NCBI GenBank assembly: GCA_963797785.1
Contig: CAWCQT010000001.1
Coordinates: 2,494 to 66,493 of the forward strand
Source: an uncultured Actinomycetota bacterium
GTDB taxonomy: Bacteria; Actinomycetota; Actinomycetes; Mycobacteriales; Jatrophihabitantaceae
Reading direction: 5' to 3'
DNA length: 64,000 nucleotides
Shown here: in pieces, positions 13,390 through 29,521 of the stretch
How the letters are laid out: each line of letters opens with the position of its first letter
Position numbering within the stretch: position 1 is the stretch's first letter
Notes under the pieces: model-generated
What the model was told of the DNA's origin: nothing
Databases searched by the model: none
What the model saw: only the letters and a program-made list of their open reading frames with translations
Translations under genes and position numbers: made by a program

Positions 13390-14151
13390 CTAGCCGCGGG
13401 GCTCAGCCAGGAACAACTCGCGGGCGGTCCCGCCGAACACCCGGGCGCGCTGTGCGGCCTCGATGGGCCAGTCGACGATCCGGGCCACCTCGGCGTCGGG
13501 CACCGTGTAGGGGGTGTCGGTGGTGAACAGGATGCGGTCGTAGCCGACGGCGGCTTCGCGGGCGAATGAGGTCAACACGGTGTCCCACGGCGCGTACGCG
13601 GTGTCGGCCACCAGGTTGGGGGCGTGCACCAGCGCCGGCACCGCGTCGATCCAGAAGTCGGTGGCCCCACTGCGGCCCATCACGAACCGGGTCTGCGGGT
13701 AGCGGCGGGCCAGCAGGGCGACCGGCATGGGCACCGCCGTCGGTGGGGTGCCGGTTCGGATGTAGACCGGCCAGCCCCAGTCCGTCGCCCGCTCGATGAG
13801 CGGCTCGACCAGCCCGTCGTGCACGTCGAAGCCCTGCAGGACGGGGTCGACGGCCAGGGCGACCGCGCCGGCGTCCCGGGCCCGGTCGAGCTCGGCCACC
13901 GCGGCGGCGCCGAACCACGGGTTGGCCACGGCGTAGGCCAGCAGCCGACCCTCGGAGCGCGCTGCCGCGGCGGCGGTGGCCTCGTTGCCCGCACGGTTGG
14001 CCACCGCGATCTCGCGCTCGGACGGCGCGACGACCGCCTTGTCGATGCCGAGCCGGTCCATCGTGGCCAGCAGCCTGTCCACCGGCAGATCGACCTCCCG
14101 CGAGGGGCCGATCCGGACGTGGGCGTCGATGACCTCGGCGCCGCCGATCAC
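13390..14151 (-). CDS. amidohydrolase_2 family protein, subtype C (degenerate metal site)
   Basis: GTG start overlaps the upstream stop. IDAHVRIG, VYIRTG, VMGRSG, FTTDTP: TIM-barrel amidohydrolase pattern with His ligands replaced. Confidence 0.8.
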   Translation of the reverse strand: MIGGAEVIDAHVRIGPSREVDLPVDRLLATMDRLGIDKAVVAPSEREIAVANRAGNEATAAAAARSEGRLLAYAVANPWFGAAAVAELDRARDAGAVALAVDPVLQGFDVHDGLVEPLIERATDWGWPVYIRTGTPPTAVPMPVALLARRYPQTRFVMGRSGATDFWIDAVPALVHAPNLVADTAYAPWDTVLTSFAREAAVGYDRILFTTDTPYTVPDAEVARIVDWPIEAAQRARVFGGTARELFLAEPRG

Positions 14152-15077
14152 GACGCGCTCCCGGCCGACGATGGCCGGCTCAGCCCGAGCGCGTCGAGCG
14201 CGTCGGCGTGCACGATGCCCTCGATCAGCTCCTCCGGCACCCGGGGCAGTGCGGTGCCGGCGGTGATCGCGTTGACCCGACGGATGCCGTCGATCGCCTC
14301 TTGCGTATTGGCGATCGGGAAGTCCGAGCCGAGCAGCAGCTTGTTCATCACACCCCATTCGGTCGCGTACAGCAGGCTCTCGTAGCAGACCCACGGCCGC
14401 AGGTAGATGGACGAGACGTCGGCGTAGACGTGCGGATGCTTGCGGACCGTGACGACGGTCTCGCGGGCCCACGGGTGGCCCATGTGGGCCATGACGATGC
14501 GCAGCTCGGGGAAGTCGAGCGCGATTTCGTCCACCACCAGTGGGTAGGTGTAGCGCAGCGGAGCCGCGCGGATCGGTGACGCGCCTTGGTGCATCAGGAT
14601 CGGCAGCCCGCGGGCTTCGGCCTCGCGGTACAGCGCGCGGGCCGGCTCGCCCAGGGGATCGAACCGTTGATAGTTGGCCCCGAGCTTGATGCCCACCAGC
14701 CCCTGCTCGTGCCAGTGCCGCAGCTGCTCGATCGCGTCGGGCCAGGTCGGGTTGACCGACATGAAACCGATCCGCTTGTGCGGCGCATCCTGGGCGAAGG
14801 CCAGCGTGGCCGAGTTGGTGTCCTCGACCCGGTAGTCCAGACCGGTCGAGCCCAGCGGGTCGTCGACGGCGATGTTGAACACGATGGTGACGTCCGCCGC
14901 GGCCATCGCCTCGTCGTAGTCGGCCCAGGAGTTGGACGTGAGCACCGGCCGGTCGGTGCGCCAGTTCGGGTAGGAGCGCAGCTCGTCGTCGGGGACGGCG
15001 TGGGTGTGTGTCGGCGTGTGGGCGTGGACGTCCACGATCATCGTTTGCGGATCTCCGTTCGGGATGGGCATGGTCAA
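14148..15077 (-). CDS. amidohydrolase_2 family protein, subtype A
   Basis: VDVHAH, GIKLGANYQ, ILMHQG, MAHMGHPW, KLLLGSDFP. Confidence 0.88.
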   Translation of the reverse strand: MTMPIPNGDPQTMIVDVHAHTPTHTHAVPDDELRSYPNWRTDRPVLTSNSWADYDEAMAAADVTIVFNIAVDDPLGSTGLDYRVEDTNSATLAFAQDAPHKRIGFMSVNPTWPDAIEQLRHWHEQGLVGIKLGANYQRFDPLGEPARALYREAEARGLPILMHQGASPIRAAPLRYTYPLVVDEIALDFPELRIVMAHMGHPWARETVVTVRKHPHVYADVSSIYLRPWVCYESLLYATEWGVMNKLLLGSDFPIANTQEAIDGIRRVNAITAGTALPRVPEELIEGIVHADALDALGLSRPSSAGSAS

Positions 15078-16195
15078 CGCAGGGTGGCCGCGATGTCGGA
15101 CCGCAGTTCGACGCCAAGACCCGGGCCGTCGGTCAATCGGACGTGCCGGCCATCCCCGGGCAGAGGGGCGGCCAGGATGTCCTCGTCGTAGTAGTGGGCG
15201 CCGATGATGTCCGACGGGAACGCTTCGTACAGGTCGGGCAGGGCGCAGGCCACGTGCAGCTGAGCCGCCGCGCCGATACCGAGTTCCCCGTTCGAGCCGA
15301 CGATCGAGCGCAGGCCAAGCGTGCCGGCCGTCCGGGCCAGCTCGACCGCTCGGCCCGGCCCGCCGGCCTTGCCGACGTAGACGCTGACCACGTCGGCCGC
15401 TTCGGCGCGGGCCACCCGCAGCAGGTCGGCCTGGCCGAACACGGCCTCGTCGGCGATGACGACCGCGCCGCGCTCGCGGACCGCCCGCATCCCGTCGAGG
15501 TCGTCCGGGGCACAGGGCTGCTCGACGAAGGCCACGTCGAGGCCGGCCAGCGGTGTGACCGCGCGCAGCGCGTCGGCCCGGGTCCAGCCTCCGTTGGCGT
15601 CGACGCCGAGGAACACTTCCGGGCCGGCCAGCTTCCGGGCGTCGGCCACCCGGCGCAGGTCGGCGTCGAGACCGAGGCCGACCTTGACCTTGAACGCACC
15701 GAAGCCGAGGGCGGTCGCGGCCCGGTAGGCCTGCGCGAGCCGATCACCGTCGCCGGACAGCGACAGCTTGATAGGCACTTCGGTGCGGCGCGGCCCGCCC
15801 AGGGCGTGGCACAGCGGGAGGTCCAGCCATCGCGCCCACGCGTCCCAGAGCGCGATCGACACGCCGGCCTTGGTGAACGGGTTGGCCGCGACCAGCCGGT
15901 CCATCGTGTCGTCCCAGCCCGGTACCGGCGCCAGCCGTCGCCCGAACAGCGCCGGCGCGATGACGCTGCGGATCACGTGCTCGGCGGTCGTGGCGTCTTC
16001 CCCGCTCCAGAGCAGGGTGGCACTGACCTCGCCCACGCCGTACACCACACGACCGTCTTCCCCGCGCACCACCACACGCACGAGGAGGAAGTCCGACCGG
16101 TCGTGGGCGCCCTTGGCGCCAAGCACGGTCAGATCGGCCCGCGCGGCCAGGCTGACCCGGGCCGTCTGCACGGTCTCGACCGTCGGGCCGGTCAC
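15074..16195 (-). CDS. mandelate racemase/muconate lactonizing enzyme (enolase superfamily)
   Basis: FKVKVG, GVDANGG, FVEQP, IADEAV metal ligands; SVYVGKAGG at strand 6; GTG start overlaps the upstream stop. Confidence 0.9.
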   Translation of the reverse strand: MTGPTVETVQTARVSLAARADLTVLGAKGAHDRSDFLLVRVVVRGEDGRVVYGVGEVSATLLWSGEDATTAEHVIRSVIAPALFGRRLAPVPGWDDTMDRLVAANPFTKAGVSIALWDAWARWLDLPLCHALGGPRRTEVPIKLSLSGDGDRLAQAYRAATALGFGAFKVKVGLGLDADLRRVADARKLAGPEVFLGVDANGGWTRADALRAVTPLAGLDVAFVEQPCAPDDLDGMRAVRERGAVVIADEAVFGQADLLRVARAEAADVVSVYVGKAGGPGRAVELARTAGTLGLRSIVGSNGELGIGAAAQLHVACALPDLYEAFPSDIIGAHYYDEDILAAPLPGDGRHVRLTDGPGLGVELRSDIAATLR

Positions 16196-16986
16196 GAGGT
16201 CCGGCCCAGCAGATCGGCCGGGTTGCGGCAGAGCACCCGCTCCAGCTGGGCCGGCGACAGACCCCACTGGTGCAGCTCGCGGACCCGGGCCACGGCGTAG
16301 GCCTGGCCGACCTTGTCGCTGAGGCCGGCGTCGGAGCCGAAGACGACGCGGTCGGCCGGACACTCCTCGACGATCCGGCGGCCGGCGTAGGGCGGCACCC
16401 CGCACAGGCAGATGTAGAGGTTGTCCGTGTCCTGCACCGCGGCGATCGCCTCGCGCCAAGTGTCGTGCAGGCCGGCGTGACCGAGTACTACCGGGATGCG
16501 GGGATGGCGTCGCGCGAACGCGGCGATCTGACCGGCCGTGGCGTAGGGCGGTGTGCCGTCGTGGCAGAGCACGATCCCGCCGTGTGCGGCGACGACGTCG
16601 GCGATCGGATCGAGGCTGGGCTCGTGCATGCTGAAGCCCTGCAACCATGGGTGCATCTTGAGCCCGCGCATCCCGAGCTGGGCGAAGCAGCGTTCCATCT
16701 CGTCGGCCGCACCCGGGTAACGCGGGTTGACCGTGCCGAACGCGCGCAACCGGTTCGGTGCGGTCGACACGAACGCGGCCAGGTCGTCGTTGGCCTCGGA
16801 CGTGGCGTGGAATAGGCCGTCGTGGCTGAGCACCACGGCCTGGGCGATGCCGGCGGTGTCCATGAATGCCAGGAACTGCTCCGGGGTGAACGGCGTCCCG
16901 GCCAGCCAACTGGCGTGCCGCCAGGCCGGGGTATGGGTGTGGAAGTCGAACGTCGGTCCGAGCGCGAGCTCGGGCGAGGCGGTCAT
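16192..16986 (-). CDS. amidohydrolase_2 family protein, subtype B
   Basis: FDFHTH, GLKMHPWLQGF, CHDGTPPY, LGHAGL, FGSDAG. Confidence 0.88.
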   Translation of the reverse strand: MTASPELALGPTFDFHTHTPAWRHASWLAGTPFTPEQFLAFMDTAGIAQAVVLSHDGLFHATSEANDDLAAFVSTAPNRLRAFGTVNPRYPGAADEMERCFAQLGMRGLKMHPWLQGFSMHEPSLDPIADVVAAHGGIVLCHDGTPPYATAGQIAAFARRHPRIPVVLGHAGLHDTWREAIAAVQDTDNLYICLCGVPPYAGRRIVEECPADRVVFGSDAGLSDKVGQAYAVARVRELHQWGLSPAQLERVLCRNPADLLGRTS

Positions 16987-17738
16987 CGGGCGTCGTCCTC
17001 CGTCGGGGCCAGGGCGGTGATGTGATCGGCCAGCCGTCGGGCGCAGCGGTCGAACCAGACCGCACCGCGATGGGCATCGCCCCGGGCCGGGTTGTCGGTG
17101 TAGCCGTCGATGCTCTGCCAGTCAGCCGCGTCGTGGACCACGAGCGCCGGTCGGGCCGGCGCCACGGCTGGGGGATCGCGCGGTGAGACGGCCACGATCA
17201 GGTGTGGAGCGAGGTGGGCCATGAGGGAGGCCTCGAATGCACCGGCGTGGCCCGGGATCGGCGGGGCGTCGGAGTTGGCGCGGTCGCCCGGGTCGGCGAG
17301 CAGCAGCTCCCAGTAGTCGACGTAGCCGACCCGCAGCCCGGTGCGCGTCGCGGCGGCCTGTGCGGCGGCGTGGCAGGGCCCGCGGTTGCCGCCGTGTCCG
17401 TTCACGATCAGCAGCCGTCGGCCACCGGCCGCAGCGACCGACCGGGCCAGATCGAGGACGACCTGGGTCATCGTCTCGACGGTGAGCGACAGGGTGGCGC
17501 CGAAGGGGACGTGATGGTCCGATGCGCCGACCGGCACGACGGGGGCAAGGACCACCGGGCGCCCCGACTCCGCCTCGGCCAGCTCGACGGCTCGGGCCGC
17601 GACCGCGCCGACGATCAGCGTGTCCGTCCCCGTCGGTAACGCCGGGCCGTGCTGCTCGGTCGCGGCCACCGGCAGGACGACGACGGCGTCGGGCAGCACG
17701 TGGGCCAGCGTTGTCCGGTCGACCTCGGACCACCTCAT
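16983..17738 (-). CDS. creatininase family amidohydrolase
   Basis: LPVAATEQHGPALPTGTD, GASDHH, VNGHGGN, GHAGAFEAS. Confidence 0.9.
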   Translation of the reverse strand: MRWSEVDRTTLAHVLPDAVVVLPVAATEQHGPALPTGTDTLIVGAVAARAVELAEAESGRPVVLAPVVPVGASDHHVPFGATLSLTVETMTQVVLDLARSVAAAGGRRLLIVNGHGGNRGPCHAAAQAAATRTGLRVGYVDYWELLLADPGDRANSDAPPIPGHAGAFEASLMAHLAPHLIVAVSPRDPPAVAPARPALVVHDAADWQSIDGYTDNPARGDAHRGAVWFDRCARRLADHITALAPTEDDAR

Positions 17739-18741
17739 GCCGGCACCGGACCGGTACGCAGCGCGGCCACCCGCTCGCTCAGCTCGAGCGCACGGAGCCC
17801 GTCGGCCAGAGCCGGGGAGGGGCGGTCGGTGTCCCCGCGGATGAGCTCGACGAAGCGGGCCAGCTGGCGGTCGAAGCACCGCTCGCTGCGCGGACCGGGG
17901 AAGCAGACCTCCTCGGTGCCGCTCGCCGTGGTGAGGGTGAGGTCGAAGCCTTCCCGTCCAGCACGGCCATTCCGCGGCGGCCGAGGAACCGCAGTTCGCA
18001 GCGGGGCAGCGCGTCGGTCCACCAGCCGAACTCGACCAGCACCTGCGCGTTCTCGCCCCATTCCAGGCGGGCGCCGCCGAGGTTGGCCGCGCCCAGGCCG
18101 GGCTCGGTGGCCGTGGCCCACGCGTCGGCGATGGCTGACGGCGGCCCATCAAGCAGGAAGGCGAGCCAGTCGAAGACGTGCGCGCCTTCGTGCACCGCGG
18201 GGGCGCCATGGGTCAGCGTCTTCAGGATGCGGTCGGCGTGCTCGCTGCCGGGTGCGCTGCGCGCCTCGTCGTAGATGTCGGCGTGCACGAGCAGCGGAGC
18301 GCCCAGCACGTCCCCGACGATCCACTCCCGCAACCGGCCAAGGGCCGGGTCGTGGCGGTAGGTGAGGCCGACTTGCAGCTGGGCCTCCTGATCGGCCGGC
18401 AGTGCCCGCAATGGGGCGGCCGCGGCGGACGAGACCGCAAGCGGCTTCTCCGACAGGCAGAACCGCCCAGCGGCCAGCACCTCCGAGATGAGGTCGGTGG
18501 TTACCCACGGCGGGGTGGCCAGCACCACCGCGGCCACCGCCGGGTCGGCCAGGACCTCGGTCAGCCCGTCGGCCAGGGCGGCGTCCGGAACCAGTCGGTG
18601 TGTCGCCGCGCGCCGGTCCGGGTCCGGGTCGGCCACCGCGGCGACGCGGACGTCGGCCGACCGCAGCAGTGCGGGCAGGTGTTGGCTCATCGCGATGTCG
18701 CCGAGGCCCACGAGGGCGATGGAAACGGGTTGTCGGCTCAT
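17735..18741 (-). CDS. Gfo/Idh/MocA family oxidoreductase (single frameshift near 17955)
   Basis: IALVGLGDIA, VVLATPP, CLSEKPL, HEGAHVFD. The C-terminus GFDLT...CFDRQL continues in another frame after a G run. Confidence 0.88.
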
Positions 18742-19508
18742 GCCGGGGTCCATTCCAGCCCGATGTCGAGGATGAGGGCGTCGCCCGGATCCAGCCGTCG
18801 TGTCATCAGCTCCGCGGGCGAGGTCACCGGCTCCACGCACACCCCCTGCTCGGCCTGGTCGAACACCGTCACGAAGTCGCCCGACGTCCGCACCGTCAAC
18901 GTGCCCACATCCTCCCAGTGCACCCCGACCGGGTCACATGTGCGGAAGCAGTCGTCCCACGGCCCGGGGTCCGGACGGCGCCAGAGGCCGTTCGGCCGCC
19001 CGCCCGGACCGCGGTCCTGCACGAGCGCGGCCGGCGGCAGGGCGACCACCGCGCGCGGCGATCCGCTGATCGAGGCACGGAACCAGGGATGCCAGCCGAG
19101 CGCAGCCGGTAGTGCGTGCATGGTGGCCGTCAGCCGGAAGGACAGCGCCAGCGTCGACTCGCTCGCCTGCGCCTGCAGCTCCAGCCGACCGCCCAGCTTC
19201 CACCCGTCGAGGTCGACGGCAATCCCATCGGCGGTACGGTGCCAGCGTTGCGTCCGGACGAAGCCGTGCACCGCGTCGGCACCGACGTGCGGGGCCCCCT
19301 CGTGTGTGTTGCCGTCGAAGTCGAACCGAGCGCCGGGCAGCCAACTCGTCCAGGGGGCCATCGTCAGCGCACCCCACCACAGCTCGTCCGGGTGGACCTC
19401 GGTGACGAGCAGTTGGTGGCCGCCCAGCACGAGCTCGGTCATCCGCGCACCGTCCAGGTCGAAGGTCGCCGTCGACGTCCCCGAGCGGACGGTCCAGGCG
19501 TCGCTCAC
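18738..19508 (-). CDS. aldose 1-epimerase/galactose mutarotase-like protein
   Basis: MAPWTSWL, AVHGFVR, PAALGWHPWF, WDDCF, GVCVEPVT. Confidence 0.8.
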   Translation of the reverse strand: MSDAWTVRSGTSTATFDLDGARMTELVLGGHQLLVTEVHPDELWWGALTMAPWTSWLPGARFDFDGNTHEGAPHVGADAVHGFVRTQRWHRTADGIAVDLDGWKLGGRLELQAQASESTLALSFRLTATMHALPAALGWHPWFRASISGSPRAVVALPPAALVQDRGPGGRPNGLWRRPDPGPWDDCFRTCDPVGVHWEDVGTLTVRTSGDFVTVFDQAEQGVCVEPVTSPAELMTRRLDPGDALILDIGLEWTPA

Positions 19509-20902
19509 GCCGGGGCGAACCCGGTGCTGACGGCGCGGAAGATCCGCTCGGGCCGGTCGGGCACCCACAGGTCGAAGGTGGCCAGCAGCGGCCCACTGCT
19601 GTCGAGTTCCCATGCCGAGGTGTCGGCGAAGTCGCCGTTGGCCAGGCCGAGTCCGATGGTGGTGACGTTATCGATGCCAAGGTCGACGAAGGCGCCACGC
19701 GCGTCGGTCAGGGCGACAAGTTCGAACCGCACGATGACGTCGGACTTGCCCCGCACCTGCTCGGTGACGTCGACCGGCCCCTGTCGCGAGTCGCCGTGCA
19801 TCCACAGGTTCCAGGCCTGGTCGGCGACGTCGATGCGCCAGACGATCTCGTCGTCGATCAACGCGCGCAGCTCGTACGTGCCGGCAGGAACGCCGCTGGG
19901 CAGGAATGCGCGGTGGTACCAGAACGAGAGCTCGTAACGCATGCTCTCGGCTACCGTCACGTGCTGCTCGGCCGACGCGGTGGCTCCGGCCGGGACGGTC
20001 ACTCTAGGGGCCAGCAGCCCGAGCCGGCCGTCGCCGTACATCGCGCGCCGGTCGATCGACGGTGTGGCGGCACCGTCGACCTGGCAGCCGTAGGCGATGA
20101 CGCCGGCGATGCGCCCGCTCTCGGCATACTCCCGCCCGGCCTGCAGGGTCTCGGCCACGTACTGCTCGGTGGGGGCGAGCGGAGCGTTGAGGAAGCGGCC
20201 GGTGTAGACGAGCAGCAGAAGGTCGAGACCGCGTGGTTGGGTGAGCTCGAGGATGGCGTCGAGGCACGGCCCGGTCGAGGTCGCGACGGTGGTGTTCTCG
20301 TGCGCGCCGTCCAGGAACGGATAGACGATTCCGTCGATGAACGGGCCGTACTTGTCGAGGAACTCCTCGCTGCGCGCAGATTCCCAGTAGGCGCAGGTGT
20401 AGAAGAGCAGATCGGGGTTGATCTCGTCCTGGGCCTGCTTGAACGACGCCATGTACTCGGCCGTGAATAGTTCCGCATTCTCGGCGAACTCGAAGTCGTC
20501 GATGGCCCACCCGACCAGCACCGGGTACTCGACTGACAGGGTCGCGATCTCGCGGGCCCAGGCGGCGAAATCGAGCAGGTAGGGCCGGGACGCCCGGCCG
20601 GCCAGGTACGTCTCGGTCGGCGGGACGAGGTAGGGGATGACCGTGATCCCGGCGCGCTGCGCGGCAGGCAGGAACTCCTCGCGTAAGTCGTCCCAGTCGG
20701 TGGCCGACTCCCACACACCGTAGAAGTAGGTGTTGGCATTCAGCTCGGTCAGCCGCCGGATCATGGCGGGGGTGTCGATGTGGCGGTAGCCGTCCGGCCG
20801 TGCCTCACGCTCGCGGATCATCCCGCCGACAGTGTTGCCGCCGCAGAGCGCGGCCCGCATTCCGTCGGGGCCGTAGTGAGCCGTCGTCCTGCCTGCTGGC
20901 AC
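19505..20902 (-). CDS. hypothetical protein, putative glycoside-hydrolase-like TIM barrel plus jelly-roll domain
   Basis: Intact 465-aa ORF at the head of the operon; LNANTYFY, VGWAIDDF, IDGIVYP, GVIAY, then a beta-rich C-terminal domain. Family not recognised with certainty. Confidence 0.55.
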   Translation of the reverse strand: MPAGRTTAHYGPDGMRAALCGGNTVGGMIREREARPDGYRHIDTPAMIRRLTELNANTYFYGVWESATDWDDLREEFLPAAQRAGITVIPYLVPPTETYLAGRASRPYLLDFAAWAREIATLSVEYPVLVGWAIDDFEFAENAELFTAEYMASFKQAQDEINPDLLFYTCAYWESARSEEFLDKYGPFIDGIVYPFLDGAHENTTVATSTGPCLDAILELTQPRGLDLLLLVYTGRFLNAPLAPTEQYVAETLQAGREYAESGRIAGVIAYGCQVDGAATPSIDRRAMYGDGRLGLLAPRVTVPAGATASAEQHVTVAESMRYELSFWYHRAFLPSGVPAGTYELRALIDDEIVWRIDVADQAWNLWMHGDSRQGPVDVTEQVRGKSDVIVRFELVALTDARGAFVDLGIDNVTTIGLGLANGDFADTSAWELDSSGPLLATFDLWVPDRPERIFRAVSTGFAPA

Positions 20903-20912
20903 GTGTCATCCT

Positions 20913-20932
20913 ATCTACGAAATGTCGAATAT
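20913..20932. promoter_or_regulatory. second IclR-type operator ATCTACGAAATGTCGAATAT
   Basis: 16/20 identical to 8097-8116. Overlaps a TAGGAT -10-like hexamer (minus strand) just upstream of the 20902 GTG. Confidence 0.65.
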
Positions 20933-20979
20933 ATTTTGCCTATACGAGAGAGTTTAGAGACACTGCGGCGGACGGTTCA

Positions 20980-21110
20980 AGACCCTGGACCGGATCAAGT
21001 GTCGTCGGAATCCTTGTGCGGCGACATCATCGCTACAAACACGAGAGCCACTGGTCTGTGCAGCGGCAGTCCGACGGATCGACGGTGTGGACCAGTCCAC
21101 CGGCCACCTA
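20980..21110 (+). pseudogene. HNH endonuclease C-terminal remnant of a DUF222-type protein
   Basis: LC(fs)RRHHRYKHESHWSVQRQSDGSTVWTSP resembles LCRxHHRxKH...W...DG...WTSP. Confidence 0.55.
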
Positions 21111-21199
21111 CGCCATTCTCTGTCTCGAGACCAGGATGGTCTTGCGCACGCACCGATCGTTGCCGACCGTTCAACCACCGGCGACGGACTGGATAACCT

Positions 21200-21350
21200 G
21201 CACCGTCGCCCGTTCGGATCAGGGTGTGCCGACACCTGGAACCTACGTATGTCGCTGCCGTTCGAGGTAGATGTTGACGTACCGGCGCACCGCTCCGGTC
21301 TCGTCGCGCAGCAACTGAACGTCCCACCGCCGTCAATGCTCAGATACGCG
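21200..21350 (-). pseudogene. MoaD/ThiS family remnant
   Basis: YLSIDGGGT ... LRDETGAVRRYVNIYL..DIRR, with deletion and frameshift. Confidence 0.5.
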
Positions 21351-21359
21351 TCGCCGTCG

Positions 21360-21712
21360 CGCGAGCCGAGACGATGCCGGCCGGGTGAACGCTTCGATCC
21401 ATTCGAAGATCGCGTTCGCCAGCTCGGCTCGGGTCGACCAGGTGGCGGTCGAGCAGCTCGATCTGCAGGGAGGCGAAGAACGACTCCGTCAGCGCGTTGT
21501 CGTCGGCGGATGCGACTTTGCCTATCGAGCCGTACAGGACGGCCTCGCGCAGCCAGTTTGGCGAACACCCCGACGTGTACTGGGTACCGCGGTCGGAGTG
21601 GACGACGTGCCGACCGGTTTGCGTTGCCAGCGGGCCATGTCCAGGGCGTCGACGACGAGCTCGGTGCGCAGGTGATCGGCGATCGGCGATGGGCGATCGA
21701 CCAGCCACCGTC
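21360..21712 (-). mobile_element. IS3-family transposase remnant (OrfB integrase core, 3' part)
   Basis: GWSIADHLRTELVVDALDMARWQRKP..VHSDRGTQYT...DNALTESFFASLQIELLDR, with frameshifts; no right end seen. Confidence 0.85.
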
Positions 21713-21767
21713 CTGATCGTCATGGTTACGGCCTCTGGCGCCTCCGACGGTCAATCGTTCGCGGCCC

Positions 21768-24035
21768 TTACCCCAGGTTCCGCGTGGTTTCGGAGTCTTT
21801 GATCGGGGCCAGCAGTTCAACCTGAGTAAGCCACATCCGGTCGGGATGCAGCCGGAATCCGCCGCCGGCGGGTTGTCGAACTCGCACATGCGCCGTTGTC
21901 GTACGAGGCAGCTCGTGCAATGTGAACAGCCCTTCGACGTCATTCGCAATCTCGATGAGCGTGACCCAGTCCCCGTCAACCTGGGCGTCGATGCGCAGCC
22001 GGCGTGAGGTGCGGTAGTACGACGCGTACTCGGGCCAGACCAGTCCGATCCGGCCGATCTCCGTTGGCGTGGCCAGCGCGATATCCACCCAGTGCTCGCT
22101 CGGTGTATCCGCCGATGCCCATCCGGTGCAGTCATTGCCGTCAGTGAGAAGGGTGATGCGGTCGGTGTACGGAGTCGCGACGACGACCGGGCCCATCAAG
22201 TGCGGCTGCAAGCGCATATCCGAGCCGTTGTGCCAGAGGATCGGCTCGGTCTCGGCATCTGTCAAATGCACGGCCGGCACCGGTCCGTCCGCGTCGCTCA
22301 GGAAGTCGTTGCGCATCATGACCGTGATGTGCGCGTAGTACGAGGGCAGGATTTCGGCGAAGAACTTCTCATCGTTCTCGATCTGGCCTGACGGGCCAGC
22401 AAGGCTGTGTGGCCCCCGCCGACACGTGAGCTGGTCGAGCTCTTCCTCGATGAACGCAAGATGGATCTCATACGCAGACACTGCGACACCACCGCGTTCG
22501 TAGTGGCAGTCGTAGTCGGTATCGAGCATGACCCAGCCTTGCTGTTCGCGGGACCACACCTCGCAGACGACGTGTTCGTCGACCGGTGGATCCGTCACTG
22601 CCTCGTCACCAATGACGTAGCCGGCGGCGATACCGCGATGCAAGTTGATCATCCGCGCCTGCATGCCGAGAGCGAGGCAACACTGCACCAGCGACACTGA
22701 GTAATGGATGCAGATGAAGTTCTCGACCCCGCGGCTAGCACGATCGAGGATCGTCAACGCGTCCCAGCGCGGCATTCGGTAGGGAGTGCAGTGCGCAGAC
22801 AGCGACTTGATCCAGTCCCGCAGTCGGACAGCGCGCTCGACATCAGTTCCGGTGCCGGCGACTGTGGCCAGTCCGAACCGCTCACGCAGCTCCTGTAGCA
22901 CGGGGTGGTCCGGGTCCTCCACCGGAAACGGGAGCCCACTTGGTGTCGGGGCGCCGCTGTCGTCAACGGGGAAGTAGACGTCCCCGACCCGATCCGTGTT
23001 GACGGTGCCGAGGAAGCTGTCGACTGTGACGACCGTGGTGGGTCCCGCGGCGAGGTTTACCCGATCATGGCTGCGCACATGGACCAACTCGTCGTCGCGA
23101 CGCATTCTGCCCAGGACCTCGGTACGGAACTCGGCCAGCCGCTCGTCCGGACCGCGATACCCAGAAAATTCTCGCTGCACGTGCTGTCCGTTGCGGGCAG
23201 GCGGGAGCGACGGTAATGCGGCCAGACGGGTCGGAGCCGGTGGTTCCTTAGCCTGTTCCAAACCAGACCTGCGCAGCCCGGCGAACGATCGTATCGCCCC
23301 CGCGACTGCCGTCACGGTCTCCGCGACTGCGCGAACACCCGTCTGTACGTTGGCCGAGGCGGGATTATCGGAATAGCCGTCGGATCCCGTCCAGACCTCC
23401 TCATCCTCGATGTGCACGTCCGTGTAGTACCGGTCCCGAACCTGGTGACGGCCGGGGCGCTCTGGAAGGGAATCGAGGGCCTGGTCTGGGAAGAGTGCGC
23501 TGAATATAGATGTCTCGAACGCACCTGCATGTCCGGGGAGTCGGCCGACCTCTTGGACGCCGGCCGCGACTAGCCGGTCCCAGGCGATCACCCAATACGA
23601 GCTTGCCGCGATCAGCGCTCCCGTCTCTGTGCCCACTTGGCGCGCTACTACCCGGACGATCTCGTCATTGCCGCCATGGCCGTTGAGGATGAAAACACGC
23701 CTGAATCCGCTCGCCAGCAATGACCGACATGCCTCGGCCAGAAACGCGATGAGAGTCGAGGGTGCGATGGTGACGGTGGCCCCGAACTGAAGGTGGTGCG
23801 CTGAGAATCCGTACGGAATGGTGGGGGCAACGATGACATCCACATCTCTGTTCAGCGACTCAGCAGCGAGTTGCGCGATGCGCTCCACAATGAGGTGATC
23901 AGTTCCGCTGGCCAGGTGAGGGCCGTGCTGTTCAGTAGCCCCCAGCGGCAGAATGGCCACTGCCTCAGCAGCGCGCTCGTTGAGCTCCGTCCGGGTGAGC
24001 AGCGCCATCCGGTTTTCGGTGCGCTGTGCCCTCAC
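21768..24035 (-). CDS. creatininase-family amidase fused to a transglutaminase-like domain and a discoidin/F5-8C-like domain
   Basis: N-terminus LPLGATEQHGPHL, NGHGGN, GHAGAFETS. Then NFICIHYS / DEHVVCEVW / WVMLDTDYD (Cys-His-Asp) and LTDGNDCTGWAS...WVDIAL. One uninterrupted 755-aa frame. Confidence 0.8.
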   Translation of the reverse strand: MRAQRTENRMALLTRTELNERAAEAVAILPLGATEQHGPHLASGTDHLIVERIAQLAAESLNRDVDVIVAPTIPYGFSAHHLQFGATVTIAPSTLIAFLAEACRSLLASGFRRVFILNGHGGNDEIVRVVARQVGTETGALIAASSYWVIAWDRLVAAGVQEVGRLPGHAGAFETSIFSALFPDQALDSLPERPGRHQVRDRYYTDVHIEDEEVWTGSDGYSDNPASANVQTGVRAVAETVTAVAGAIRSFAGLRRSGLEQAKEPPAPTRLAALPSLPPARNGQHVQREFSGYRGPDERLAEFRTEVLGRMRRDDELVHVRSHDRVNLAAGPTTVVTVDSFLGTVNTDRVGDVYFPVDDSGAPTPSGLPFPVEDPDHPVLQELRERFGLATVAGTGTDVERAVRLRDWIKSLSAHCTPYRMPRWDALTILDRASRGVENFICIHYSVSLVQCCLALGMQARMINLHRGIAAGYVIGDEAVTDPPVDEHVVCEVWSREQQGWVMLDTDYDCHYERGGVAVSAYEIHLAFIEEELDQLTCRRGPHSLAGPSGQIENDEKFFAEILPSYYAHITVMMRNDFLSDADGPVPAVHLTDAETEPILWHNGSDMRLQPHLMGPVVVATPYTDRITLLTDGNDCTGWASADTPSEHWVDIALATPTEIGRIGLVWPEYASYYRTSRRLRIDAQVDGDWVTLIEIANDVEGLFTLHELPRTTTAHVRVRQPAGGGFRLHPDRMWLTQVELLAPIKDSETTRNLG

Positions 24036-25075
24036 GACGACTGGCCAACGTCAGGGGCCGCCCAACGCGATGCAGTACCGATCATTGCCTCTGCCGCCGG
24101 GCGCCGGATGGCCGCTACAACCTGTTCTCCCAAGCGCAGTGACTGAACGCCCACGGCAACCGAAGTCTCCGGAGTAGTGCGCTGCCGCAAGCAAGTCACG
24201 AAGTGCTCGAGCTGTAGGTCGAAGCACAGGTCGTTCCACGGGCGACTCAGTCGGACGCGTTCGGTCCGGTCGCGCCGGGTCATGGTGACGACACCACCTG
24301 GGCGATCGAGGATGGCGACGCCGTCCGGTCCGAGTGCGCGGAATTCGCCGGCCGGGCTGCTTGGGAACAGCCAGCCGATCTCCAGCCGGGCAACATCGCC
24401 GTTGCCGTATCGCACCAGTGCGGACACGAAGTTCTCGCTCCCAAGATCTGGAATCGAGCTAAGGCCGATGGCCTGCACATCGACCGGGTGCGAGCCGGTC
24501 AGGTACGCGAGGTGATCGGCAAAATGCGCGCCCTCGTGAACGAAGCTGGGCGCCACGTCGAGAAAGGCACGGATCCGCCGCTCGTGCATCGGGTCAGTCG
24601 GGTCTCGTGCCTCATCGAAGCCGCCGAGGGTGAAGGCAATGGGACCACCAAGGTCGCCGCCCTCGATCCAACCGCGTACCGCACGAACCAACGGTGAGAA
24701 CCGATTCTTGAACCCGACCTGAACCACCCGGTCACAGTTTTCGACCGCCTGTTGCACACTGAGCGCGGTCTGCAGGTCGAGGGCCATCGGCTTCTCACAG
24801 AGCACGTCCAGCCCGACGCCGATCGCCGCAAGAGTCAGCAGCGGTGTCACCTGCGGCGGAGTCGCGATGACGACCGCCTGCACCCGTTGGTTGGCCAGCT
24901 GCGTGACGGAGCCGGCGGTGGCACACCCGTATTGTGCCGCCACGTTCTGGGCGCGCGCCGGATCGGAGTCCATTACCGCGACCAGCTGCACCTCCGAGCT
25001 TCGCGACAGCGCGGGTAGATGTCCGGTCATTGCGATGTCTCCGCAGCCGATGAGGGCGACGCTGATCCGACTCAT
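24032..25075 (-). CDS. Gfo/Idh/MocA family oxidoreductase
   Basis: VALIGCGDIA, VIATPP, LCEKPM, HEGAHFAD; paralogue of 17735-18741. Confidence 0.9.
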   Translation of the reverse strand: MSRISVALIGCGDIAMTGHLPALSRSSEVQLVAVMDSDPARAQNVAAQYGCATAGSVTQLANQRVQAVVIATPPQVTPLLTLAAIGVGLDVLCEKPMALDLQTALSVQQAVENCDRVVQVGFKNRFSPLVRAVRGWIEGGDLGGPIAFTLGGFDEARDPTDPMHERRIRAFLDVAPSFVHEGAHFADHLAYLTGSHPVDVQAIGLSSIPDLGSENFVSALVRYGNGDVARLEIGWLFPSSPAGEFRALGPDGVAILDRPGGVVTMTRRDRTERVRLSRPWNDLCFDLQLEHFVTCLRQRTTPETSVAVGVQSLRLGEQVVAAIRRPAAEAMIGTASRWAAPDVGQSS

Positions 25076-25115
25076 TAGCCCACCGCCCTTGACCGGAGTC
25101 GACACGATCCGGGGG

Positions 25116-25871
25116 TCATGGCAGTCCCAACCAGTGCGCAGCGTTTGCGTACCGCACTGCCGCCGACTCGGCGTCAGACAGGCCTACCAGGATCCGGCGT
25201 AACACGGCAAGCCGGTGCCGAGGCAGGTCCGTGGAACCGAACCCGGAGTCGGTACCCATGGCTACCCGTTCGATGGGCACGCCGTGCAGCACGCTGCGCA
25301 GCACGGCGCCCGACGCCGATCCGCACAGTGTGACCATCACGTTGGGCCATCGGTTGACTGCGGCGACAGCGTCTTGCCACAGGTCGATAAGCCCGCCGTG
25401 TGCCAGTACGACCAAGCATGCCGGCACCGCTGCGGCGAGCTGGCCGATTTGCAATGGAGACGAATATGGCGGAGTGCCGTCGTGTACGAGCAGGGGCATA
25501 CCGTGCTCGGCTGCCCGTTTCGCCACCGCGATGGACTCTGCCTCGATTGGGGAGAATCCCTGCAACCACGGATGCAATTTCACCGCTCGGAACCCGATGG
25601 CCGCGCAGCGGTCTAATTCCTCGAGTGCACCAGGGTCGTGGGGGTCGACTGTGCACGCTGCCACCAGCCGATCGATGGTGTCCGCGCAGACCTCGGCGAC
25701 CTCATCGTTGCTGCGGCGCGGATCGAAGTACAGCCCGTCCAGCGGCATGACCACGGCGCGGGAGATGTCGTGGCGGTCCATCATGTCGAGCGCGGCCGCT
25801 CGCATGTCATCAGGTGACCGGCCGGCGGCGCGCGGCGGAAGGTGCGTGTGCATGTCGAAGATGCTGGTCAC
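25116..25871 (-). CDS. amidohydrolase_2 family protein, subtype B
   Basis: FDMHTH, VKLHPWLQGF, VHDGTPPY, LAHGGL, MGTDSG; paralogue of 16192-16986. Confidence 0.88.
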   Translation of the reverse strand: MTSIFDMHTHLPPRAAGRSPDDMRAAALDMMDRHDISRAVVMPLDGLYFDPRRSNDEVAEVCADTIDRLVAACTVDPHDPGALEELDRCAAIGFRAVKLHPWLQGFSPIEAESIAVAKRAAEHGMPLLVHDGTPPYSSPLQIGQLAAAVPACLVVLAHGGLIDLWQDAVAAVNRWPNVMVTLCGSASGAVLRSVLHGVPIERVAMGTDSGFGSTDLPRHRLAVLRRILVGLSDAESAAVRYANAAHWLGLP

Positions 25872-26626
25872 ACCGCTCGCCCCAACAGTCGCCGTGCAGT
25901 TGCGGTGAAGATCGCGTGACGTGCGTTTGCTGAGAGGTCGGCTCGTCGGAGCCGGGCGACTTCGAGGTCCAGGTCGTTGAAGGGCGCGTCGCTGGCGAAC
26001 GCTATCCGGTTCGGGCCTATGAGTGCCGCGAGTTCCGCGATCAGCTCCGGTCCGTTGTATGCGGTCTCGGCGACGATGTTGTCCACCGCACGCAGGGTAG
26101 GAGTCAGGTCGAGGGAGTAGTCCGTTCTACCGGAGCGGCCGAGCACGAAGGTCACCGTGGGGAATCGTCGGGCGAGTTCGGCGAGCTGGAACGGCTCGCT
26201 GGCAATGGGCACTCCGGTCACCACGTACACGGGTTTGCCATGTTCGGCAGCCACCTCCAGCAGCGGGCGCACCAACGCTTGCTGCAGCAAACTGAACCCC
26301 TGCACGGCCGGGATCAATTTGAGGCCGGCAACATCCGCGCTGAGCGAGGCAGCCAGCCGGGCTGCGGCGTCCGGGTACCACGGGTTCACCGTCACCCATC
26401 TGGAAAACCTGCCTGGCCAGCGCTCGCACCACTTCTGCAGCTCACGATTACCGGCTTCGTTGTCGACAGCTGCCCAGCGCCCGATCGGGCCGAGCGCCGC
26501 GTGGCCCACCCCGGATGCGTCCATCGCTGCCAGCAATGGTTCCGGTGAGGTGAAGTCGAAGCCTGGCGCGGATCCGGCCGCGCAGTGCAGGTCCACTCCG
26601 CCACGAGAGAAGTCGGTGGGAGTCAT
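25868..26626 (-). CDS. amidohydrolase_2 family protein, subtype C (degenerate metal site)
   Basis: VDLHCAAG, VYVVTG, VLGRSG, FASDAP; paralogue of 13390-14151. Confidence 0.8.
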   Translation of the reverse strand: MTPTDFSRGGVDLHCAAGSAPGFDFTSPEPLLAAMDASGVGHAALGPIGRWAAVDNEAGNRELQKWCERWPGRFSRWVTVNPWYPDAAARLAASLSADVAGLKLIPAVQGFSLLQQALVRPLLEVAAEHGKPVYVVTGVPIASEPFQLAELARRFPTVTFVLGRSGRTDYSLDLTPTLRAVDNIVAETAYNGPELIAELAALIGPNRIAFASDAPFNDLDLEVARLRRADLSANARHAIFTATARRLLGRAV

Positions 26627-26637
26627 CTGGGGCCGCG

Positions 26638-27525
26638 TCAGCCTGCGACAGGGGTCGGAAAGTCGGAGAGCATCGCAGCCAATTCCGCGCGTTCGTCGGA
26701 CAGTAGCGGCAGGAGCGGCAGGCGGACTAGCGGTGCGGATCTACCGAGCAGTGCCATTCCTTCTTTGAGGACGGTGATGTGGTAGCCGGGCCGTCGGCGA
26801 CGCAGCGCAAGGAGGGGCTCAGCGCGGATCATGAGTTCGTCGAAGCGCGCTCGATCGCCAGCCACCGCCGCGTCCCAGACGCCCAGCGAGAGCCCGGGGT
26901 CCAGATTCGCCAACCCAGAGGTCATCGCCTGTGCCCCGGCGGCGGCATACTGCATCGCTAGCGGCTCGGCCATTCCGTTGATCCAGGTATAACGCTCGCC
27001 CAGTCGCGCCTTACTGGCCGCAAACAGCTCGACGTCCCCGTGCTCGTCTTTGACGGCGGCCACTTGCGGCACCGTGGCCAATGCCTCCAGCTCGTCCGGG
27101 CCGTACACGGCGCCTTCGGTGCTGAAGACAATCAGCGGCAGATCGGATGCCGCCCCGATCGCGCGGTAATGCTCGACGAGTCCGCGCAGTTCCGGTCGGA
27201 TGAAGTAGAGCGGATTGACCATCAACGCATCCGCCCCGTGCCGGGACGACTGTGCGGCGAGGTCGGCGGCGATCGCGGTGCTGTGCCCTATGCCGGCAAT
27301 GACCGGCACCCGGTCGGCAGCGGCGGAGTGGGCGGCTGCTAGCAGTGTCCGATGCTCGATACTGCTCAGCGAGTAGAACTCCCCCACGCCGCCGGCGACC
27401 ACGACCGAGGACGCGCCGCCGTCGATCAAGAACTCGACCTGACGCTCGATCGCAGCCGAATCGATAGTGCCGTCTTCGGTGAATGCCGTTGGCAGAAAGG
27501 CCATCAGTCCGGTCAGGTTGATCAT
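26638..27525 (-). CDS. DapA family protein, 5-dehydro-4-deoxyglucarate dehydratase-like
   Basis: LMAFLPTAFTEDG, GGVGEFYSL, AVKDEHGD, WINGMAE, MTSGLAN; ATG overlaps the upstream stop. Confidence 0.8.
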   Translation of the reverse strand: MINLTGLMAFLPTAFTEDGTIDSAAIERQVEFLIDGGASSVVVAGGVGEFYSLSSIEHRTLLAAAHSAAADRVPVIAGIGHSTAIAADLAAQSSRHGADALMVNPLYFIRPELRGLVEHYRAIGAASDLPLIVFSTEGAVYGPDELEALATVPQVAAVKDEHGDVELFAASKARLGERYTWINGMAEPLAMQYAAAGAQAMTSGLANLDPGLSLGVWDAAVAGDRARFDELMIRAEPLLALRRRRPGYHITVLKEGMALLGRSAPLVRLPLLPLLSDERAELAAMLSDFPTPVAG

Positions 27526-28424
27526 CACAATCCATTCTGTGCGCCGGACAGGAACTGCTCGGCGTTGTGCTCGATGATCGCTTCGATGTCGGCCTCGGGC
27601 AGCTGGGGCAGCCTCGTACCGGCGACGATGTCGTTTACGCCACGTAGCCCGGCGATGGTGTCCTCCAGCGTCGCGCTGGGGAAGTCCGAGCCGAGCAGCA
27701 GCTTGTGAGTGACGCCGTATTCGTAGGCAGTGATCATCGCCTGCCAGTACCGGTACGGCCGGTAGTGGCAAGCCGAGATGTCGGAGTACACGTTCGGTGC
27801 CTTGCGGATCAGCGCCGCGACGTCCTGCTCCCACGGATGGCCGAGGTGTGCGATCACAATTCGCAGCCTCGGAAACGCCATGGCAAGCGGTTCCAGCTGC
27901 AGCGGGCCGGCCAGATCGATGCGTGCCCTCGACGGGAACGTGGTGCCTTGATGCACCATCACCGGCAGGTCCCATCGTTCGCAGTGGGAAAAGACCTCCC
28001 AGGTGGTGCGATCCTGCGGATTCCAATGCTGGTAGGCCGGGCCGACCTTCAAGCCGCGCAGACCGAGCTCGTGCACAGACCGATCAAACTCGGCGACCGC
28101 ATCCGGCTCCGCGGGATTCACCGACGCCCACCCCTCGATGTTCCCGGGATGCGCGCTGGCGTACTCGGCGATCACGTCGTTGGGCACCCAGAAGCCGGTG
28201 GGTCGCGCCTGCAGCCCGAACACCACGACGCGATCAGCCTGCGCTGCCGCAGCGAGATGCTCATCTGGTGTGGCGTCCTGAACGTGCAGGTCGAGGTGTG
28301 CGGCGTAGGCCTTGCCACCACTGCGCGCCAGCTTGACCTGCTTTGCGGCAAGGGCCTCCTGGGCCGTCTGCTCGCTGATGTGCTCGGGGTACCACATCAG
28401 ATGTGTGTGGATGTCTATGCGCAT
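27525..28424 (-). CDS. amidohydrolase_2 family protein, subtype A
   Basis: IDIHTH, GLKVGPAYQ, VMVHQG, IAHLGHPW, KLLLGSDFP; paralogue of 14148-15077. Confidence 0.88.
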   Translation of the reverse strand: MRIDIHTHLMWYPEHISEQTAQEALAAKQVKLARSGGKAYAAHLDLHVQDATPDEHLAAAAQADRVVVFGLQARPTGFWVPNDVIAEYASAHPGNIEGWASVNPAEPDAVAEFDRSVHELGLRGLKVGPAYQHWNPQDRTTWEVFSHCERWDLPVMVHQGTTFPSRARIDLAGPLQLEPLAMAFPRLRIVIAHLGHPWEQDVAALIRKAPNVYSDISACHYRPYRYWQAMITAYEYGVTHKLLLGSDFPSATLEDTIAGLRGVNDIVAGTRLPQLPEADIEAIIEHNAEQFLSGAQNGL

Positions 28425-29521
28425 CGCAACGCCTCGATCCGCTCAACATCCACCTCGACGCCCAACCCTGGACCGTCCGGAACGCGCAGCTGACCGTCTT
28501 TGATCACCGGTGCCGTTACCACGATGTCCGTCGGGTACCGCAACGGACCGACGACATCGGACTCGTAGCCAAGGTTCGGTACCGCAACACCTACATGCGC
28601 GCATGCGGCAGTGGCCAGGCCGAGCTCGCACTGACTGCCGAGCAGCCCTACCAGACCGGCAGCCTCGGCCGCGGCGAAGGCCTTCCATGCTTGCAGTGGG
28701 CCCCCTACCTCAGTGACGTAGATGTTCAGGACGTCAGCGGCACCGCGACGAACGATCTCCCCTATGTCGCGCAGGGTCCAGCACGACTCGTCGAGCATGA
28801 GCGGAGTCCGCAACTTGTCGCGCAGCCGGGCCAGCTCGTCAAGGTCCCGCGGTGGCAGCGGCTGTTCGATGAGTTGTAGCTGCAGCTCCTCCAACGGCGC
28901 GAGAGCTGCGTATGCCTCACCCGCGCTGCGATAGGCCATGTTCGCATCGACCTTGATGGCTACTTCTGCGCCGACCGCATCGCGCACGGCGGCAACCACA
29001 TCATGGTCGATCCGGCCTGGTCGGCCAACCTTCAACTTGACTACTGCGAAGCCGTTCTCAACTGCGCGCACCGCCGTTTCGGTGGTCTGCTCGACAGACC
29101 CCCATGGCAGCGGCCAGGCGACCGGCACCGATTCCCGGACTCGGCCGCCGAGCAACCGATACGCCGGCACGCCAAGGGCCTTTCCGGCGATATCGAGCAG
29201 GGCCATCTGAACGGCCGCCTTCGCGGCGTGGGCGCCATCGGTCGGCAGATCCAGACGCCGGTCGACGGCTAGCCCGCAGGCAGCCAGGTCACGCGGATCC
29301 ATTCCGTGAACGGCCGGCGCGATGCTGAGCTCAACGTCGCGGCACAACGCCCGGCCCACGCGGCCCCACGACATCGCGATCTCACCCCAGCCAGTGATGT
29401 CTGCGTCTGTGTCTACGCGAACGACACCGAATTCCGATACATCGATGGAGCCCTGTGTGGCGACCATCGGGGTGATCCGCGGTACCGAGATCGGCGTCGC
29501 TGTGATGCGGGTGATGCGCAT
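28415..29521 (-). CDS. mandelate racemase/muconate lactonizing enzyme (enolase superfamily)
   Basis: VKLKVG, KVDAN, LIEQP, MLDES; NIYVTEVGG at strand 6. Confidence 0.9.
   Translation of the reverse strand: MRITRITATPISVPRITPMVATQGSIDVSEFGVVRVDTDADITGWGEIAMSWGRVGRALCRDVELSIAPAVHGMDPRDLAACGLAVDRRLDLPTDGAHAAKAAVQMALLDIAGKALGVPAYRLLGGRVRESVPVAWPLPWGSVEQTTETAVRAVENGFAVVKLKVGRPGRIDHDVVAAVRDAVGAEVAIKVDANMAYRSAGEAYAALAPLEELQLQLIEQPLPPRDLDELARLRDKLRTPLMLDESCWTLRDIGEIVRRGAADVLNIYVTEVGGPLQAWKAFAAAEAAGLVGLLGSQCELGLATAACAHVGVAVPNLGYESDVVGPLRYPTDIVVTAPVIKDGQLRVPDGPGLGVEVDVERIEALRCA

Follow-up and report, generated by a model that had tools for sequence, protein, structure and literature searches.

In a window of 64,000 nucleotides from an uncultured Actinomycetota bacterium of the Jatrophihabitantaceae (GenBank assembly GCA_963797785.1, contig CAWCQT010000001.1), two diverged copies of one catabolic module are encoded on the minus strand, and each contains a gene, here called C1 or C2, for a protein of the Amidohydro_2 family (PF04909) that has lost most of its metal ligands. 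Protein C is probably a metal-free, non-catalytic partner of B, a catalytic paralogue of the same family that is usually encoded directly after it. This role, first proposed from the nucleotide sequence of the window alone (hereafter the sequence-only reading), is strongly supported by comparative evidence, namely the C-then-B adjacency of the genes, sister paralogy with mirrored trees, an asymmetric loss of ligands in which those of B are never affected, purifying selection of equal strength on both proteins, relatives in which two such barrels are fused, and precedents within PF04909. The C/B pair is widespread and uncharacterised. Its kind of architecture was already demonstrated experimentally in 2025, and C/B is neither of the two characterised systems compared below, DHLI and AibH1H2.

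The frames of C1 and C2 are open and full length (253 and 252 aa) and both match Pfam Amidohydro_2 above its gathering threshold of 26.4 bits (C1, E 1.7e-22, 81 bits; C2, E 9.3e-29, 101.5 bits), with 37% identity between them across ~240 residues. The longest open reading frame over C1 (13390-15117, minus strand, 575 aa, TTG start) is an artefact of a high-GC open frame; the true start is the GTG at 14151, which overlaps the A1 stop. The C2 protein was modelled by AlphaFold2 as a (beta/alpha)8 barrel with a predicted local distance difference test score (pLDDT) of 93.7 and a predicted template modelling score (pTM) of 0.92. Foldseek with this model returned 213 matches at E <= 0.001, and the best 50 of these were nearly all PF04909-type chains (decarboxylases and uncharacterised amidohydrolases) at a probability of 1.00. 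No close solved structure of C or B was found in HMMER and profile searches of PDB chains, and NCBIfam has no model covering either protein. The closest solved folds or sequences are the small uncharacterised Amidohydro_2 structures CAC3332 (PDB 3cjp), BB4693 (3irs) and Bifidobacterium longum AH2 (6uvz), which share with C and B a compact barrel of ~250-290 aa; profile E values reach 1e-17 to 3cjp and 3irs, and 3cjp gives the best overall superposition on the C2 model (TM 0.80/0.77, root mean square deviation 2.8 A). Unlike C, 3cjp retains the strand-5 His, the strand-6 His and the strand-8 Asp in the HMMER alignment, and none of the three structures is known to have a degenerate partner.

Catalytic, metal-dependent Amidohydro_2 proteins carry a signature of five ligands (HxH after strand 1, His after strands 5 and 6, Asp after strand 8). 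C1 and C2 do not have this signature, and each retains two of the five residues. Ligand positions were set in three ways: by HMMER alignment to PDB 3cjp and LigW, by MAFFT alignment with subtypes A and B of the window, and by the AlphaFold2 strand map of C2. In the HMMER alignment, the strand-5 His column is occupied by V136 in C2 and R132 in C1, the strand-6 His column by R164 and R160, and the strand-8 Asp column by D213 and D212. The same assignment was obtained with MAFFT, and in the C2 model strand 5 spans residues 133-136 and strand 6 residues 160-163, with D213 following strand 8. C1 therefore reads H/R/R/R/D at the ligand positions, within the motifs DAH11-V-R13, YIR132TG, GR160SG and TD212 (codons H11 14119-14121, R13 14113-14115, R132 13756-13758, R160 13672-13674, D212 13516-13518). 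C2 reads H/A/V/R/D, within DLH14-C-A16, YVV136TG, GR164SG and SD213 (codons H14 26585-26587, A16 26579-26581, V136 26219-26221, R164 26135-26137, D213 25988-25990). The sequence-only reading had described just this loss of most ligands in both copies, with the strand-8 Asp kept in each, and all three methods bore it out. Its further observation that subtypes A and B keep all their His ligands also stood, since A1, A2, B1 and B2 retain the HxH, both other His residues and the Asp in a joint alignment.

Genes for C and B occur together far beyond this genome. Homologues of C2 led to 33 loci in genomes of Jiangella and Dactylosporangium and in metagenome-assembled genomes (MAGs) from seven further phyla; 32 of these loci were usable. 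A B homologue lies downstream of C on the same strand in 32/32; it follows directly in 30, mostly with a stop/start overlap of 4-22 nt, and lies 0.9-1.2 kb downstream in L020 and L024. The C-to-B arrangement was found in Actinomycetota, Planctomycetota, Verrucomicrobiota, Acidobacteriota, Kiritimatiellota, Lentisphaerota, Spirochaetota and Nitrospirota. In one Actinomycetes MAG (L032:10019-10634), C is split in two frames, by a frameshift or an assembly error, and the downstream B is intact. Within the window, the B2 start and the C2 stop share 4 nt (ATGA). The search was also seeded with B, which gave 80 metagenome loci, 64 of them taken as having enough upstream sequence. C stands directly upstream of B in 47 of these 64; among the other 17, it is 1.2 kb upstream in one and ~1.5 kb away on the opposite strand in five, it is absent within 3 kb either side of B in one (L105), and the flank is too short to judge its presence in the remaining ten. 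At L061, L083, L090, L099 and L120, a third Amidohydro_2 gene with a weak score comes after B, and C lies ~1.5 kb downstream on the opposite strand.

A maximum-likelihood tree rooted on subtype A resolves C and B as sister clades, with support of 98 and 92, respectively. Each is divided into the same three subclades with the same genomes in each, and C1 pairs with B1 and C2 with B2. Pairwise identities among C orthologues follow those among B orthologues closely (r = 0.90; means 0.44 and 0.45). Trees and gene order show that C and B have been inherited as a pair, and a single ancient duplication of a small (~250 aa) Amidohydro_2 enzyme would best explain the origin of both. On this phylogeny B1 is the evolutionary partner of C1, although the two are not adjacent in module 1, and B2 is proposed as the putative catalytic partner of C2. 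The rest of the genome (4.34 Mb in 4 contigs) has no further C- or B-like gene. Within the phylum the pair is rare and unevenly spread: B was present in 1 of 401 sampled genomes, namely this one, a presence/absence profile that is uninformative.

The two proteins differ in the fate of the metal site. B reads HHHHD in 31/31 genome loci and in 78/78 complete metagenome sequences (109/109), whereas of 202 distinct C sequences only 31 have the canonical set, and the losses follow dozens of different patterns. Among the genome loci, canonical C is confined to one subclade, of five Acidobacteriota and Planctomycetota genomes. In the actinobacterial subclade, to which C1 and C2 belong, the second His of strand 1 is lost, strand 6 has Arg in every member, and the strand-5 His is missing from most. 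Another subclade, mainly of PVC-group members (Planctomycetota, Verrucomicrobiota and related phyla), has lost both strand-1 His residues, has Gly for the strand-8 Asp and mostly keeps the strand-6 His. All five ligands of C are gone from two Verrucomicrobiota genomes, where the strand-6 change from His to Arg arose independently. On a 31-taxon tree, the five ligand positions changed at least 11 times in C against 0 times in B. Since B retains all five residues throughout, the loss in C is not a matter of chance. The asymmetry extends past the ligands: polar residues invariant in B and variable in C include D45, E85, K98, H100, W102 and D131, and C has an invariant set of its own (W83, Y134, E150, D169, D173, T188, R207, E222). 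B retains a full metal and active site.

Between close relatives, the ratio of nonsynonymous to synonymous substitution rates (dN/dS) is 0.08-0.53 for C, the same range as for B. These ratios and the invariance of the motif GRSGRTD within the actinobacterial subclade show that C is under selection; different lineages have lost the site in different ways, yet under purifying selection as strong as that on B. The sequence-only reading had taken the GRSG shared by two diverged copies as a sign of selection rather than decay. Selection is upheld by dN/dS and by the invariant motif, but the replacement itself reflects shared ancestry: GRSG is common to 11/11 members of the actinobacterial subclade, where it is the ancestral state, and convergence between C1 and C2 was rejected.

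Relatives that carry two barrels in one chain bear on the physical side of the pairing. A profile search of 1.84 billion representatives gave 924 proteins at E <= 1e-30, and 39 of the best 150 matches are proteins of ~500-550 aa with two barrels, one with a full ligand set and the other with essentially none. Most place the degenerate barrel before the canonical one, as in the C-then-B gene order, and a minority are reversed. One such family, of ~520 aa, is encoded 8-9 kb from C/B in Dactylosporangium (L005:154-1722, L006, L007) and, as a 510-aa gene, at the start of a metagenome contig (L037); its N-terminal barrel is ligand-less and its C-terminal barrel canonical. The same family occurs in Jiangella genomes carrying C/B and was not detected in the genome of this window. 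AlphaFold2 modelled the natural two-barrel protein L005:154-1722 with pLDDT 94.7 and pTM 0.93 over both barrels; because the model is confident and uncertain only in the linker (251-258), the two barrels are predicted to form a single rigid body. These proteins are treated as related examples rather than strict C-B fusions.

Two characterised systems within PF04909 are precedents for such a pairing. DHLI, the 6,7-dihydroxylumazine isomerase of Cupriavidus sp. LA-1, is encoded by adjacent Amidohydro_2 paralogues of ~27 kDa each (LA1_0151, beta; LA1_0152, alpha) and was purified as an alpha2beta2 heterotetramer, in which alpha lacks two Zn-binding His residues and is inactive, yet indispensable for beta (Commun Biol 2025; PMC12391406). 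As in DHLI, C and B are two co-inherited Amidohydro_2 paralogues of which one has kept the metal ligands. Unlike the alpha subunit with its two missing His residues, C lacks three to five ligand residues, often with Arg or Lys in their place. The DHLI genes are accompanied by a molybdenum lumazine dehydrogenase of the XOR family, UbiD/UbiX and a GTP-binding helper (PMC12391406); neither module has a lumazine dehydrogenase, UbiD/UbiX or a GTP-binding helper, and the only UbiD and all molybdenum cofactor-binding genes of this genome are on other contigs. Orthology of C/B with DHLI was rejected on gene context; the sequences themselves were not part of the comparison. The second system, the 2-aminoisobutyrate hydroxylase AibH1H2 of Rhodococcus wratislaviensis (PDB 8FUL-8FUO), is an (alpha-beta)2 heteromer of PF04909-fold paralogues with its catalytic site in AibH2 only; AibH1, proposed to be structural, still carries a structural metal (PMC10401708). 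It resembles C/B as a pair of PF04909 paralogues of which one has a full catalytic site. AibH2 and the other AROs (PtmU3, SfbO) are dinuclear oxygenases with a C-terminal D-x-P-H-x-D/E motif and a Rieske ferredoxin (PMC13154177). Unlike AibH2, B reads D-x-G-[FL] at the motif site (invariant D-x-G, G210), and C2, unlike the AROs, reads D-A-P-F-N-D and lacks the motif His. Pfam scans of the clusters revealed no Rieske domain, and AibH chains were not reached by B or C profile searches at E <= 0.1. An oxygenase of the ARO/AibH type was rejected, as both the signature motif and the Rieske partner are missing. A looser parallel is provided by PyrC', the inactive dihydroorotase-like subunit of Pseudomonas aspartate transcarbamoylase, and by CRMP/DPYSL, amidohydrolase-fold proteins that have lost their metal ligands and serve as structural partners. 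These belong to Amidohydro_1, and their partner is not a catalytic paralogue of the same fold. C differs from them as a member of Amidohydro_2 whose proposed partner B is a same-fold paralogue.

If C is the partner of B, the two would assemble as a hetero-oligomer (probably heterodimeric or alpha2beta2), with metal binding and substrate turnover falling to B alone, and C would be needed for the folding, stability or active-site completion of B. With the metal gone, the buried strand-8 Asp would either gain a cationic side chain as its counterpart or be lost itself. The strand-6 Arg of the actinobacterial subclade (Lys in some relatives) would fill the empty metal site and neutralise the Asp, so that strand-6 Arg or Lys is probably a charge compensation for the retained Asp, structural and not catalytic. 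Charge compensation is suggested by the residues found together in degenerate C sequences: a strand-6 Arg or Lys is accompanied by an acidic residue or Asn at strand 8 in 71 cases and not in 6, compared with 19 and 52 for a strand-6 His. Lys is found besides Arg at strand 6 among C sequences, and Arg has repeatedly appeared at the second strand-1 position too (at least 5 changes on the tree).

Several points weigh against the partner role. Tight adjacency and 4-nt overlaps are common between non-interacting enzymes in high-GC operons, and such overlaps also join A1 to C1 and the creatininase gene to B1 in module 1, where two genes separate C1 from B1. Inactivity is not inherent to C, since every ligand is in place in one of its subclades, the one made up of five Acidobacteriota and Planctomycetota genomes. 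In the subclade of this window, the first His of strand 1 and the Asp of strand 8 are still present and the GRSGRTD motif is invariant, which could by analogy with LigI support metal-independent catalysis. The fused proteins are more distant relatives whose degenerate barrel is assigned to C only by modest differences in hidden Markov model score. The association of a strand-6 Arg or Lys with a strand-8 Asp is confounded by phylogeny and comes mainly from two clades. The physical C-B complex itself is inferred from the comparative evidence.

The alternative that survives best, though unlikely, is that C is an independent metal-free enzyme catalysing a step adjoining that of B, such as lactone hydrolysis or isomerisation. 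In the actinobacterial proteins acid-base catalysis would fall to the retained His of strand 1 and Asp of strand 8, and Arg, of which C1 has several, would polarise a carbonyl or bind a carboxylate. The retained H14 and D213, the GRSGRTD invariant within the close clade, the purifying selection on C and the C-conserved residues at C-terminal strand ends (N81/W83, Q109, D169, E/D187-T188) are all compatible with such an enzyme. A metal-independent catalyst of the same fold exists in LigI, the 2-pyrone-4,6-dicarboxylate lactonase of cog3618 within PF04909. LigI shares its fold family with C, but retains its His and Asp residues and uses them catalytically, and C has not kept this set. The C profile matches LigI-like chains weakly (2ffi, 3.9e-5; 4d8l, 0.038), and the best NCBIfam scores against cog3618 lactonase models (LigI, L-fucono-1,5-lactonase, 4-sulfomuconolactone hydrolase) are 19-22 bits, far under cut-offs of 400-500. 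A cog3618 lactonase identity for C was rejected on these scores. No candidate catalytic residue is kept family-wide: the PVC subclade has neither the strand-1 His pair nor the strand-8 Asp, L008 and L014 lack all five ligands, and other C subclades keep the strand-6 His and lose the strand-8 Asp with both strand-1 His residues. The Arg-based mechanism suggested in the sequence-only reading is thus not supported as a property of the family, Arg being confined to one subclade and no canonical active-site residue being conserved across C; for the actinobacterial subclade alone it keeps a low probability. An independent enzyme would also leave unexplained why at least 11 ligand changes fell in C and never in B despite their co-inheritance.

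It is distinctly improbable that C is a non-enzymatic protein for ligand binding or regulation (substrate binding, delivery or sensing) that forms no stable complex with B. A conserved barrel with C-specific invariant residues on its catalytic face and no catalytic residues would suit such a function, and co-inheritance with the module is consistent with it, but the strict C-then-B order, the frequent start/stop overlaps and the relatives with two fused barrels argue for physical pairing at 1:1 rather than a free binding protein, and both characterised PF04909 precedents are stable heteromers. That C1 and C2 are pseudogenes decaying from duplicated amidohydrolases is hardly credible and was rejected: decay would be expected to remove several catalytic residues, and one relative (L032) has a broken frame, but the C1 and C2 frames are intact, dN/dS (0.1-0.5) and mean identity are both as for B, C is deeply conserved (at least eight phyla) and has invariant residues that B does not share, and the C2 model is confident.

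The partner role of C would have consequences for how these proteins are handled. Automated annotation gives both genes as 'amidohydrolase family protein', which hides a likely non-enzyme, C, and B expressed alone may be inactive or insoluble, the problem met with DHLI. Should C prove an obligatory partner of B, this would set the conditions for expressing and assaying an uncharacterised family that occurs in at least eight phyla. Partners in this family range from canonical to entirely ligand-less, and fused forms exist as well, a natural series suited to studying how paralogous heteromers become asymmetric. Pairs of an intact and a dead Amidohydro_2 barrel are suggested to be a recurrent design rather than a one-off.

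The pair sits in sugar and amino-sugar clusters of Actinomycetota and the PVC group. Across phyla it is accompanied by a creatininase-family hydrolase and a Gfo/Idh/MocA dehydrogenase; in L034, L036 and L037, a creatininase-family gene and one or two Gfo/Idh/MocA genes lie beside C-B. The PVC-type contigs (L034-L036) add DegT-type aminotransferases, and the neighbours in L034 and L036 also include a ROK protein and an Antibiotic_NAT-like protein, a setting that hints at an amino sugar or aminocyclitol as substrate. In actinobacterial loci the additional genes are those for DHDPS, MR_MLE and subtype A. Because of these recurrent neighbours, the C/B module points to a role in the catabolism of a sugar, amino sugar or sugar acid. 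No published description of the pair was found in the literature on clusters of creatininase with Amidohydro_2 or on amidohydrolase pseudoenzyme heteromers. It is a speculative and rather unlikely extension that C/B, the creatininase-family hydrolase and Gfo/Idh/MocA form an undescribed multi-subunit system for a new ring-opening or isomerisation step in amino-sugar or sugar-acid catabolism, in which the Arg or Lys of actinobacterial C would replace the metal cation and give C a ligand-binding or catalytic role of its own; a second Arg is often present at strand 1 in actinobacterial C.

Genes of the two modules in the window are listed in Table 1.

Table 1. Genes of the two catabolic modules, with coordinates in the 64,000-nucleotide window.
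Feature	Position	Strand	Basis and remarks
C1, ligand-poor Amidohydro_2 paralogue, 253 aa	13390..14151	-	Pfam, alignments; GTG start overlaps A1 stop by 4 nt
A1, Amidohydro_2 subtype A, 309 aa, full HxH/H/H/D	14148..15077	-	Pfam, MAFFT alignment
Enolase-superfamily (MR_MLE) enzyme, module 1	15074..16189	-	Pfam MR_MLE_N and MR_MLE_C; start codon chosen
B1, Amidohydro_2 subtype B, 264 aa, full ligand set	16192..16986	-	Pfam, alignment, tree
Creatininase-family hydrolase, module 1	16983..17741	-	Stop overlaps B1 start by 4 nt
Creatininase, transglutaminase-like and F5/8 type C domains in one 755-aa frame, module 2	21768..24035	-	
Gfo/Idh/MocA oxidoreductase, module 2	24032..25075	-	Pfam
B2, Amidohydro_2 subtype B, 251 aa, ligands H8, H10, H130, H158, D208	25116..25871	-	
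C2, ligand-poor Amidohydro_2 paralogue, 252 aa	25868..26626	-	Pfam, alignments, AlphaFold2 strand map
DHDPS-family lyase, module 2	26638..27525	-	Pfam
A2, Amidohydro_2 subtype A, 299 aa, full ligand set	27525..28424	-	
Enolase-superfamily (MR_MLE) enzyme, module 2	28415..29521	-	Pfam

The window has a GC content of 0.62-0.73. Module 1 is arranged in the order creatininase, B1, MR_MLE, A1 and C1, and upstream of it, on the plus strand, are a CUT1-type sugar ATP-binding cassette (ABC) transporter, a DHDPS-family gene and an IclR regulator. In module 2 the order is a peptide/opine-type ABC transporter, MR_MLE, A2, DHDPS, C2, B2, the Gfo/Idh/MocA oxidoreductase and the creatininase fusion. Two minus-strand frames at the head of module 1 (19505-20902 and 20954-22135; 465 and 393 aa) have no Pfam match at E <= 0.001, and 18738-19613 has a weak aldose-1-epimerase match of 26.2 bits, slightly below the cut-off. 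The F5/8 type C domain of the minus-strand frame 21768-24035 is carbohydrate-binding-like, and in Jiangella and Dactylosporangium the same creatininase fusion, or split versions of it, is found downstream of C, B and the Gfo/Idh/MocA gene.

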